A DNA stretch of 64,000 bases from Escherichia coli O127:H6 str. E2348/69 (GTDB lineage: Bacteria > Pseudomonadota > Gammaproteobacteria > Enterobacterales > Enterobacteriaceae). The stretch lies in assembly GCF_000026545.1 (NCBI RefSeq), contig NC_011601.1; one strand, written 5' to 3'. Position 1 is the first letter of the stretch. Every line of letters starts with the position of its first letter. A program made the position numbers and the translations under genes. Shown here in pieces: positions 11,472 to 13,916 of this stretch. Below the pieces are notes generated by a model that did not search any database, was not told the DNA's origin, and saw nothing but the letters and a program-made list of their open reading frames with translations.

Positions 11472-13916
11472 ATGAAAACGAAAATCCCTGATGCGGTATT
11501 GGCTGCTGAGGTGAGTCGCCGTGGTTTGGTAAAAACGACAGCGATCGGCGGCCTGGCAATGGCCAGCAGCGCATTAACATTACCTTTTAGTCGGATTGCG
11601 CACGCTGTCGATAGGGCTATTCCAACAAAATCAGACGAAAAGGTTATCTGGAGCGCCTGTACAGTTAACTGTGGTAGTCGCTGCCCGCTACGTATGCACG
11701 TAGTGGACGGTGAAATCAAATATGTCGAAACGGACAATACCGGCGATGACAATTACGACGGCCTGCACCAGGTTCGCGCCTGTCTGCGTGGGCGTTCCAT
11801 GCGTCGCCGTGTCTACAATCCGGACCGCCTGAAATATCCAATGAAACGAGTCGGGGCGCGCGGTGAAGGCAAATTCGAGCGCATTAGCTGGGAAGAAGCT
11901 TACGGCATCATCGCGACCAATATGCAGCGCTTGATCAAAGAGTACGGCAACGAATCCATCTATCTGAACTATGGCACCGGTACGCTGGGTGGCACCATGA
12001 CCCGCTCCTGGCCGCCGGGAAATACCCTGGTCGCGCGCCTGATGAACTGCTGCGGCGGTTATCTGAACCATTACGGTGACTACTCCTCTGCGCAAATTGC
12101 AGAAGGTCTGAACTATACCTATGGCGGCTGGGCGGATGGTAACAGCCCGTCGGATATCGAAAACAGTAAACTGGTAGTGCTGTTTGGTAATAACCCTGGC
12201 GAAACGCGAATGAGTGGCGGTGGGGTGACTTACTATCTTGAACAGGCGCGCCAGAAATCTAATGCCCGCATGATCATCATCGATCCGCGCTATACCGACA
12301 CCGGTGCCGGGCGTGAAGATGAGTGGATCCCTATTCGTCCGGGAACAGATGCCGCACTGGTTAACGGTCTGGCGTATGTCATGATCACCGAAAACCTGGT
12401 GGATCAGGAATTCCTCGATAAATATTGCGTTGGCTACGACGAGAAAACCCTGTCAGCCAGTGCGCCGAAAAATGGTCACTATAAAGCTTATATTCTGGGT
12501 GAAGGACCCGATGGCGTGGCTAAAACACCGGAATGGGCCTCGCAAATCACCGGTGTTCCGGCAGACAAAATCATCAAACTGGCTCGTGAAATCGGCAGTA
12601 CCAAACCGGCGTTTATCAGCCAGGGATGGGGCCCGCAGCGTCACGCTAACGGTGAAATCGCAACCCGTGCTATCTCGATGCTGGCGATTCTGACCGGTAA
12701 CGTTGGTATTAACGGGGGGAACAGCGGCGCGCGCGAAGGTTCATACAGCTTACCGTTTGTCCGTATGCCGACTCTCGAAAACCCGATCCAGACCAGCATT
12801 TCTATGTTTATGTGGACCGATGCCATTGAACGTGGCCCGGAAATGACGGCGCTGCGTGATGGTGTGCGCGGGAAAGATAAGCTGGATGTGCCGATCAAAA
12901 TGATCTGGAACTATGCCGGTAACTGCCTGATTAATCAGCATTCTGAAATCAACCGTACCCATGAAATCCTTCAGGATGATAAGAAGTGCGAGCTGATTGT
13001 GGCTATCGACTGCCACATGACCTCATCGGCGAAATATGCTGACATCTTGCTGCCTGACTGCACCGCTTCCGAACAGATGGACTTTGCACTGGATGCATCC
13101 TGCGGGAATATGTCTTACGTGATTTTCAATGATCAGGTCATTAAACCGCGCTTTGAATGTAAGACCATCTATGAAATGACCAGCGAACTGGCAAAACGTC
13201 TTGGCGTTGAGCAACAGTTTACTGAGGGCCGTACCTAGGAAGAGTGGATGCGGCATCTGTATGCTCAGTCGCGGGAAGCGATTCCTGAACTGCCAACGTT
13301 TGAAGAGTTCCGTAAGCAGGGGATCTTTAAAAAGCGCGACCCACAAGGGCATCACGTTGCTTATAAAGCTTTCCGTGAAGATCCGCAGGCAAATCCACTG
13401 ACCACGCCATCGGGGAAAATTGAGATTTATTCGCAGGCGCTGGCTGACATTGCCGCTACCTGGGAATTGCCAGAAGGTGATGTGATCGATCCACTGCCGA
13501 TCTATACGCCGGGCTTTGAAAGTTATCAGGATCCGCTGAACAAACAATATCCGCTGCAGCTTACTGGCTTCCACTACAAATCTCGCGTTCACTCAACTTA
13601 CGGCAACGTTGATGTGCTGAAAGCAGCTTGCCGTCAGGAAATGTGGATCAACCCGCTTGATGCACAAAAACGCGGTATCAACAACGGCGATAAGGTCAGG
13701 ATCTTTAACGACCGTGGTGAAGTTCATATTGAGGCGAAAGTGACGCCACGAATGATGCCGGGTGTGGTCGCACTGGGTGAAGGTGCCTGGTATGACCCGG
13801 ATGCAAAACGTGTCGATAAGGGCGGTTGTATTAACGTACTGACCACTCAACGTCCGTCTCCTCTCGCTAAGGGGAATCCGTCACATACAAACCTGGTTCA
13901 GGTTGAAAAGGTGTAA
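11472..13916 (+). pseudogene. dmsA: DMSO reductase catalytic subunit DmsA, interrupted by an in-frame TAG at 13236..13238
   Basis: ORF 11472..13238 (Tat signal SRRGLVKTTAIGGLAMASSA, Fe-S Cys motif, Mo-bisMGD domain) and ORF 13248..13916 are in the same frame, separated only by TAG; together they span 2445 nt, the size of intact dmsA (814 codons). Confidence 0.8.

Follow-up and report, generated by a model that had tools for sequence, protein, structure and literature searches.

The dmsA gene of Escherichia coli O127:H6 str. E2348/69, which would encode the catalytic subunit A of DMSO reductase, is interrupted by an amber codon. Is the stop genuine, and if so, how did it arise and what does it leave of the enzyme? 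The gene lies in a stretch of 64,000 nucleotides (the window) that corresponds to LT827011.1:928001-992000; comparison of its first 50 kb with positions 928001-978000 of that record gave no mismatch.

An amber codon within dmsA

Translation of the plus strand from 11472 to 13916 yields 588 sense codons up to a stop, then another 225 that end in TAA. The stop is a TAG at 13236-13238, codon 589 of dmsA, with the residues QQFTEGRT directly before it and EEWMRHLYAQS directly after it. The original prediction had placed a TAG at codon 589, splitting dmsA into pieces of 588 and 225 codons; translation confirmed this, and the residues it had quoted around the stop are identical. In the list of open reading frames the upstream piece appears as 11472..13238 (588 aa); the downstream one shares its frame and, counted from its first ATG, appears as 13248..13916 (222 aa). 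The ends of the frame 11472..13916 coincide with those of the RefSeq dmsA feature of E2348/69, and TAG589 is the sole internal stop of an otherwise intact gene of 814 codons. The uninterrupted 814-aa frame of a DmsA protein is thus lacking, and because of the stop at codon 589 the locus is a dmsA pseudogene and not a functional DmsA member. The part of dmsA past the stop (13239..13916, plus strand, 225 codons and TAA) would be untranslated, or at best translated after a restart. On the same strand follow dmsB (13927..14544), which encodes the iron-sulfur subunit and is intact in both the reading-frame list and RefSeq, and dmsC (14546..15409), which encodes the membrane anchor subunit and is intact in RefSeq.

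A query of 201 bases around the stop matched 5,423 of 5,426 complete E. coli genomes, with 100% identity in three only (NZ_CP059840.2, NZ_LT827011.1, and NZ_LT903847.1), all of which are EPEC O127:H6 E2348/69 or a derivative; a 7.2-kb stretch is identical across the three. Identity to the window is 100%, over 4.9-7.8 kb, for six contigs that come from separate assemblies or read runs (ERZ1023040, ERZ761558, SRR1931835, SRR1554967, SRR1931810, and SRR11997935), and in a protein collection drawn from NCBI, ENA, and Logan the exact 588-aa product occurs on 34 contigs. The sequencing or assembly error offered as an alternative in the original prediction is refuted by the three complete assemblies and the six contigs from separate runs, and with the 588-aa product on 34 contigs as well, we give it practically no credence.

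In all three E2348/69 assemblies, PGAP/RefSeq calls dmsA a pseudogene with an ‘internal stop’ (locus tags BQ9544_RS04945 in NZ_LT827011.1, H4J01_RS16295 in NZ_CP059840.2, and BQ9550_RS20490 in NZ_LT903847.1), with dmsB and dmsC intact. The dmsA pseudogene of E2348/69 is already known through this annotation, which gives the same feature, coordinates, and note as found here; unlike the present analysis, the RefSeq entry includes neither the ancestral codon, nor a mechanism, nor the distribution among strains. Among the papers searched, none was found to link E2348/69 to a dmsA pseudogene. What is added here is the assignment of a mechanism, the independent recurrence of the change at the same base, and a census of nonsense alleles in which Dcm positions dominate.

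Ancestral codon, age, and recurrence of the lesion

Codon 589 is CAG in the nearest intact alleles, those of strains A25 and DCE7 (36-37 differences), and codons 588-589 of K-12 MG1655 read ACC CAG. Alignment with other E. coli dmsA genes, which had been proposed along with the original prediction, gave CAG in 18 of the 18 other alleles of a 20-allele panel; TAG was found only in E2348/69 and in the Res13 clone described below. Given CAG in K-12 and the other alleles, the lesion is one C-to-T transition at 13236, which converted a glutamine codon to the amber codon at 13236..13238 (plus strand). The K-12 CAG (Gln) and the single C-to-T transition that the original prediction had given are therefore borne out by MG1655, A25, and DCE7.

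The stop appears to be recent. When E2348/69 dmsA was compared with 16 other distinct alleles, its private changes comprised 14 synonymous and two non-synonymous substitutions (S48R and P328S), and no second lesion was found in the allele. Because the private changes are mostly synonymous, purifying selection probably acted over most of the branch, which would make the stop a late arrival and dmsA of E2348/69 a young, lineage-specific pseudogene. An old, decaying pseudogene was considered and ruled out by the 14:2 ratio of synonymous to non-synonymous private changes together with the lack of a second lesion. The complete genomes include no close natural relative of E2348/69: even the closest of their dmsA alleles differs at 36 nt; the strain was isolated in 1969. 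Transition-type nonsense alleles of dmsA are present in just 0.39% of complete genomes, and at such a frequency the gene would seem to be normally maintained.

Recurrence of the change was examined with a query of 43 bases centred on the T, such that every 28-base megablast seed must include that base. Only nine genomes matched, namely six clonal pig isolates of the Res13 series, from Quebec, and the three records of E2348/69. The dmsA gene of the pig clone likewise has TAG at codon 589 and is likewise annotated with an ‘internal stop’. Of the 2445 bases of the gene, 73 differ between the Res13 allele and that of the window, and differing bases lie as close as 10 nt upstream and 29 nt downstream of the site; since so divergent an allele carries the same T, base 13236 has mutated independently at least two times.

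The Dcm site and the probable origin of the mutation

The ancestral ACC CAG GAA of K-12, A25, and DCE7 holds CCAGG, an instance of the Dcm site CCWGG. Position 13236 is the second (inner) C of this motif, the one methylated by Dcm at C5; a T now stands there, and the motif reads CTAGG (13235-13239, within CCTAGG at 13234..13239). A CCWGG ancestor, a mutated inner C, and a C-to-T change yielding CTWGG, the sequence marks of Dcm-linked deamination, are all present. The transition named in the original prediction stands; its Dcm context (CCAGG to CTAGG) had not been recognised and is added here. Both dcm (1419 bp, 472 aa) and vsr (471 bp, 156 aa) are annotated as intact in E2348/69 (LT827011.1 2086104-2087973), and from the motif and the presence of dcm we infer that the C at 13236 was methylated. 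Spontaneous deamination would have turned the 5-methylcytosine into thymine, the T:G mismatch so formed would have escaped very-short-patch repair by Vsr, and replication would then have fixed T at 13236, creating TAG and a DmsA of 588 residues. A recent, lineage-specific nonsense mutation through deamination of Dcm 5-methylcytosine, with loss of DmsABC, is in our view a highly probable reading of the locus, and the coincidence of the mutated C with the Dcm-methylated position would explain both the origin of the lesion and its recurrence.

Amber hotspots at Dcm sites in lacI were reportedly described by Coulondre, Miller, Farabaugh and Gilbert in 1978. They fall on the second C of CCAGG, with an over-representation of ~10-fold, and are attributed to deamination of 5-methylcytosine to thymine (PMC12606429). 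The amber codon of dmsA shares with them the motif, the mutated second C, the C-to-T change, the conversion of CAG to TAG, and the product CTAGG, and the excess over other nonsense sites is comparable (~10-fold in lacI, ~20-fold per site in dmsA). However, the lacI cases are laboratory-selected mutants of K-12, whereas those of dmsA are alleles fixed in natural isolates, detected through comparison of 5,426 genomes.

The dmsA excess comes from a census of nonsense alleles. Single-base substitutions can create a stop in dmsA in 273 ways, at 229 sites. Transitions (C>T or G>A) make up 58 of these, and just six of the 273, TAG589 among them, change a Dcm inner cytosine. The census covered the 58 transition nonsense sites in the 5,426 complete E. 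coli genomes. Each query 55-mer had one mutated base at its centre, mismatching spacers lay between the 55-mers, and the queries had no 28-mer in common with the wild type; they detect only alleles that have a 28-base exact match to the E2348/69 flanks. Stops were verified by sequence for most matches outside E2348/69 and Res13, all but that of 19AR0253, which was counted with 19AR1321. Independent events were counted by allele divergence and not by a full phylogeny. Matches in O157:H7 493/89, GN25, 1919D3, and MARGA_3 were removed, dmsA proving intact on sequence check.

Five of the six Dcm-type sites were hit. Codon 100 (nt 298) is a stop in 19451123, ECONIH5, O68:H12 97.3, and PCP06171, through at least two events, the 19451123 allele lying 49 bases from the others; codon 589 (nt 1765) accounts for two events, in E2348/69 (three assemblies) and the Res13 clone (six genomes). 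One event each was counted at codon 384 (nt 1150, in 203740), codon 664 (nt 1991, in 1585m1 and JS01, whose alleles are one base apart), and codon 773 (nt 2318, in N39). Codon 180 (nt 539) had no event in any genome, its match in O157:H7 493/89 being a false positive. The other transitions gave one event each at codon 140 (nt 420, TGA, in O111:H8 7-55), codon 386 (nt 1158, TGA, in KCJ3K291), and codon 440 (nt 1318, TAG, in 19AR1321 and 19AR0253). At least seven independent events in 17 genomes thus fall on the Dcm-type sites, versus three events in four genomes on the other C>T/G>A nonsense sites, where 3 of 52 sites were hit. The difference is significant for sites hit (one-sided Fisher p = 7e-5) and for events (binomial p = 1.1e-5), with a per-site ratio of ~20; put otherwise, 10% of the eligible sites in dmsA bear 70% of the events. 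Base 13236, with its two hits, therefore behaves as a hotspot, in that the Dcm sites show both an excess over equivalent non-Dcm sites and recurrence. In the 20-allele panel, codon 588 is ACC in 12 alleles, ACA in six, and ACT in two, and ACC alone makes a Dcm site; both TAG589 events arose on ACC alleles, which is compatible with the mechanism but statistically weak. A search for natural relatives with the TAG, made with the 222-aa C-terminal reading frame, led to other lineages whose lesions differ, namely CAA581TAA, GAA590TAA, and +A frameshifts; some of the assemblies concerned, several in number, have many genes split, and the lesions there could be artefacts of assembly.

A lone C-to-T event cannot be assigned to deamination over replication error. 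The competing account is that the change at 13236 was an ordinary replication error, or the deamination of an unmethylated cytosine, and that it recurred by chance or through selection for loss of DmsA. Nonsense alleles outside Dcm sites do exist (codons 140, 386, and 440, as well as 581 and 590 in draft genomes), so the loss of dmsA is tolerated irrespective of mechanism. However, selection would not concentrate seven of ten events on six Dcm positions among 58 equivalent transition sites (p ~1e-5), and the low frequency of such alleles, along with the mostly synonymous private changes of E2348/69, argues for purifying selection and against selected loss. We consider this account unlikely and favour deamination at the Dcm site.

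The same site may bear on how lasting the lesion is. CCTAGG at 13234-13239 holds the only CTAGG/CCTAG in the 64-kb window, versus 204 copies of CCWGG. Depletion of CTAGG in E. coli genomes has reportedly been connected with Vsr repair by Lieb and Bhagwat in 1996. The mutant sequence in dmsA is this same Vsr substrate context; in the window, by contrast, CTAGG is about as frequent as expected (observed 1, expected 1.2 under a maximal-order Markov model) and is no scarcer than the general rarity of CTAG would imply. Vsr is described as stimulating changes of CTAGG to CCAGG (PMC2715241). Given such a bias, reversion of the dmsA amber may be favoured, and back-mutation to the Gln codon may exceed an ordinary T-to-C change.

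Consequences for DmsA and for E2348/69

With glutamine restored at codon 589, the protein has the domain order of DmsA, as judged by Pfam: Molybdop_Fe4S4 (PF04879, the FS0 domain; aa 56-116, nt 11637-11819), Molybdopterin (PF00384; aa 119-576, nt 11826-13199), and Molydop_binding (PF01568; aa 695-806, nt 13554-13889). Among solved structures in the PDB it is closest to TMAO/DMSO reductases (E down to 1.6e-88), a Tat signal (SRRGLVK) lies near the N-terminus, and the gene order serS-dmsA-dmsB-dmsC-ycaC is that of K-12. What remains in the 588-residue product is the Tat signal together with the FS0 cluster domain and the whole Molybdopterin domain; the linker and Molydop_binding are lost. The original prediction was thus right that a C-terminal portion is lost but wrong as to the domain, for the Pfam Molybdopterin domain lies wholly upstream of the stop and it is the separate Molydop_binding domain that disappears. 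In Mo-bisMGD enzymes the C-terminal domain contacts the cofactor and is needed to hold it; a DmsA truncated in this way should therefore be inactive. The allele is probably a loss-of-function allele and DmsABC probably inactive, and the loss of function foreseen in the original prediction is supported by the CAG to TAG change and by the RefSeq call of ‘pseudo, internal stop’. The stop is followed by 678 bases and then, after a 10-base gap, by dmsB; with so long an untranslated stretch ahead of it, Rho-dependent polarity on dmsBC is plausible.

Two routes by which DmsA function might survive the stop were weighed. In one, ribosomes start anew at 13248, where an in-frame ATG lies nine nt past the stop, and the 588-aa and 222-aa pieces assemble into a functional split DmsA. 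A weak AGGA (13237-13240) stands 7 nt upstream of this ATG, and the 222-aa reading frame is called by gene callers and has a complete Molydop_binding domain inside it; against this, the anti-SD pairing at the ATG (-4.2 kcal/mol) is only within the top ~20% of ATGs in dmsA, the fragment would have no Tat signal and would be short of residues 589-592, DmsA-type subunits split in nature were not found, and PGAP treats the gene as a pseudogene. In the other, ribosomes pass the amber codon and complete a full-length, functional DmsA, helped by a suppressor tRNA (of the supE type or another) or through efficient near-cognate readthrough. The supE/glnV44 suggestion of the original prediction is sound in its logic, as a Gln-inserting suppressor would exactly restore the wild-type residue. 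It lacks support in E2348/69, where the gln tRNA cluster (LT827011.1 618156-618749) has one Gln(CUG), two Gln(UUG), two Met, and one Leu tRNA genes and no CUA anticodon, and where the 64-kb window has no tRNA genes. K-12 has two copies of tRNA-Gln(CUG); with the one copy of E2348/69, conversion to a supE-type suppressor would presumably remove the sole dedicated reader of CAG. Strong amber suppressors are rare in wild isolates. Suppression of the supE type is accordingly rejected at its canonical locus; the tRNAs examined are those of the gln cluster and the window, and a suppressor elsewhere, including a prophage-borne one, is possible. TAG589 resembles the supE44 (glnV44)-suppressible ambers of laboratory strains in being a CAG-to-TAG change that a Gln-inserting suppressor could restore, and differs from them in that the E2348/69 gln cluster has no CUA tRNA and there is no sign of a co-maintained suppressor. 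Both routes seem to us very improbable, and a non-functional DmsA is the preferred reading.

Programmed recoding to selenocysteine or pyrrolysine was likewise rejected: the codon is UAG and not UGA, and the stop is not conserved, other alleles having CAG. E. coli is not known to have pyl genes. The original prediction had also pointed to the paralogous ynfEFGH reductase, and this is indeed available: ynfE, ynfF, ynfG, ynfH, and dmsD are all annotated as intact in E2348/69, making it reasonable to suppose that the paralogue could mask the phenotype. Current PGAP names for the ynf genes are those of selenate/tellurate reductase subunits.

Overall, the dmsA lesion is ordinary gene loss by a textbook mechanism and does not require new biology. 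It offers a natural illustration of the textbook hotspot, in which the same Dcm-site cytosine was hit in two lineages, and Dcm positions make up most of the transition-type dmsA nonsense alleles among 5,426 genomes. A wider possibility, which we regard as speculative and rather doubtful, is that nonsense pseudogenes of the transition type in wild E. coli, and not those of dmsA alone, arise chiefly through Dcm methylation. The bias of Vsr from CTAGG towards CCAGG could then let such ambers act as slowly reversible off/on switches and not as dead ends. If this were true, dmsA of E2348/69 would be one case of a cost that cytosine methylation imposes on natural populations, measurable across the genome. 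For the strain itself, a widely used EPEC reference, the modest practical consequence is that it is very probably without the DmsABC DMSO/S-oxide reductase, which would be relevant to anaerobic respiration, to gut colonisation, and to the use of E2348/69 as a wild type in work on dms or Tat export; as a single-base lesion, it can revert and could be repaired by one edit.

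Lesions of dmsA in other lineages

Lesions different from the codon-589 amber of E2348/69 affect dmsA in other lineages, at most about 30 bp either side of codons 580-590: the nonsense changes CAA581TAA and GAA590TAA, and a frameshift through an extra A (+A) at gene nt 1714 (loci L036, L037, and L040, from GCA_014331675.1, LR134221.1, and GCA_005391305.1). All of these lineages retain the same 222-aa C-terminal ORF, and because this ORF served as the query, the clustering of lesions in this part of the gene is an ascertainment effect. Several further Logan/454-type assemblies carry dmsA +A frameshifts together with splits in many other genes; these frameshifts may be assembly errors. 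The Galapagos seawater strain PCP06171 (NZ_CM129872.1, L014) has a Dcm-type amber at codon 100 followed by a later frameshift, and its N-terminal 99-aa piece is annotated separately by PGAP as a [quoted passage not shown] This allele is an older pseudogene in which decay is further advanced.

Glutamine tRNAs and other pseudogenes of E2348/69

The gln tRNA cluster of E2348/69 (LT827011.1 618156-618749; L030 22157-22750) encodes six tRNAs in the order Gln-CUG, Met, Gln-UUG, Gln-UUG, Leu, Met. It thus holds only one Gln-CUG gene, whereas the K-12 cluster comprises seven tRNAs with Gln-CUG present twice (glnV and glnX).

A second pseudogene, ycaC, adjoins dmsC on the opposite strand (window 15445-15988, minus strand). 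Sequence comparison with strain A25 revealed that 83 bases are missing, with the deletion junction after 15948 and a 5-base direct repeat, CAGCA, bordering the deletion. All three E2348/69 assemblies label the gene "frameshifted," and an intact ycaC of 627 bp is present in A25, DCE7, Res13, N39, 1585m1, and JS01. Further pseudogenes came up in the LT827011.1 regions around ynfE and dcm (19008-19705 of L032; 19550-19962 and 36980-38673 of L033): a bioD paralogue adjoining clcB, yedD, and dgcQ, each frameshifted.

The Dcm site at codons 588-589

The dmsA amber site reads CCTAGG (13234-13239), the sole occurrence of CTAGG or CCTAG in the 64-kb window, where CTAG itself is found just 8 times and the Dcm sites CCAGG and CCTGG number 88 and 116. 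Among the 20 alleles of our panel, the Dcm site at codons 588-589 is polymorphic at gene nt 1763-1764 (window 13234-13235): codon 588 is ACC, and the site present, in 12 alleles, while ACA or ACT removes it from the other 8. Some E. coli lineages are therefore not exposed to the codon-589 hotspot.
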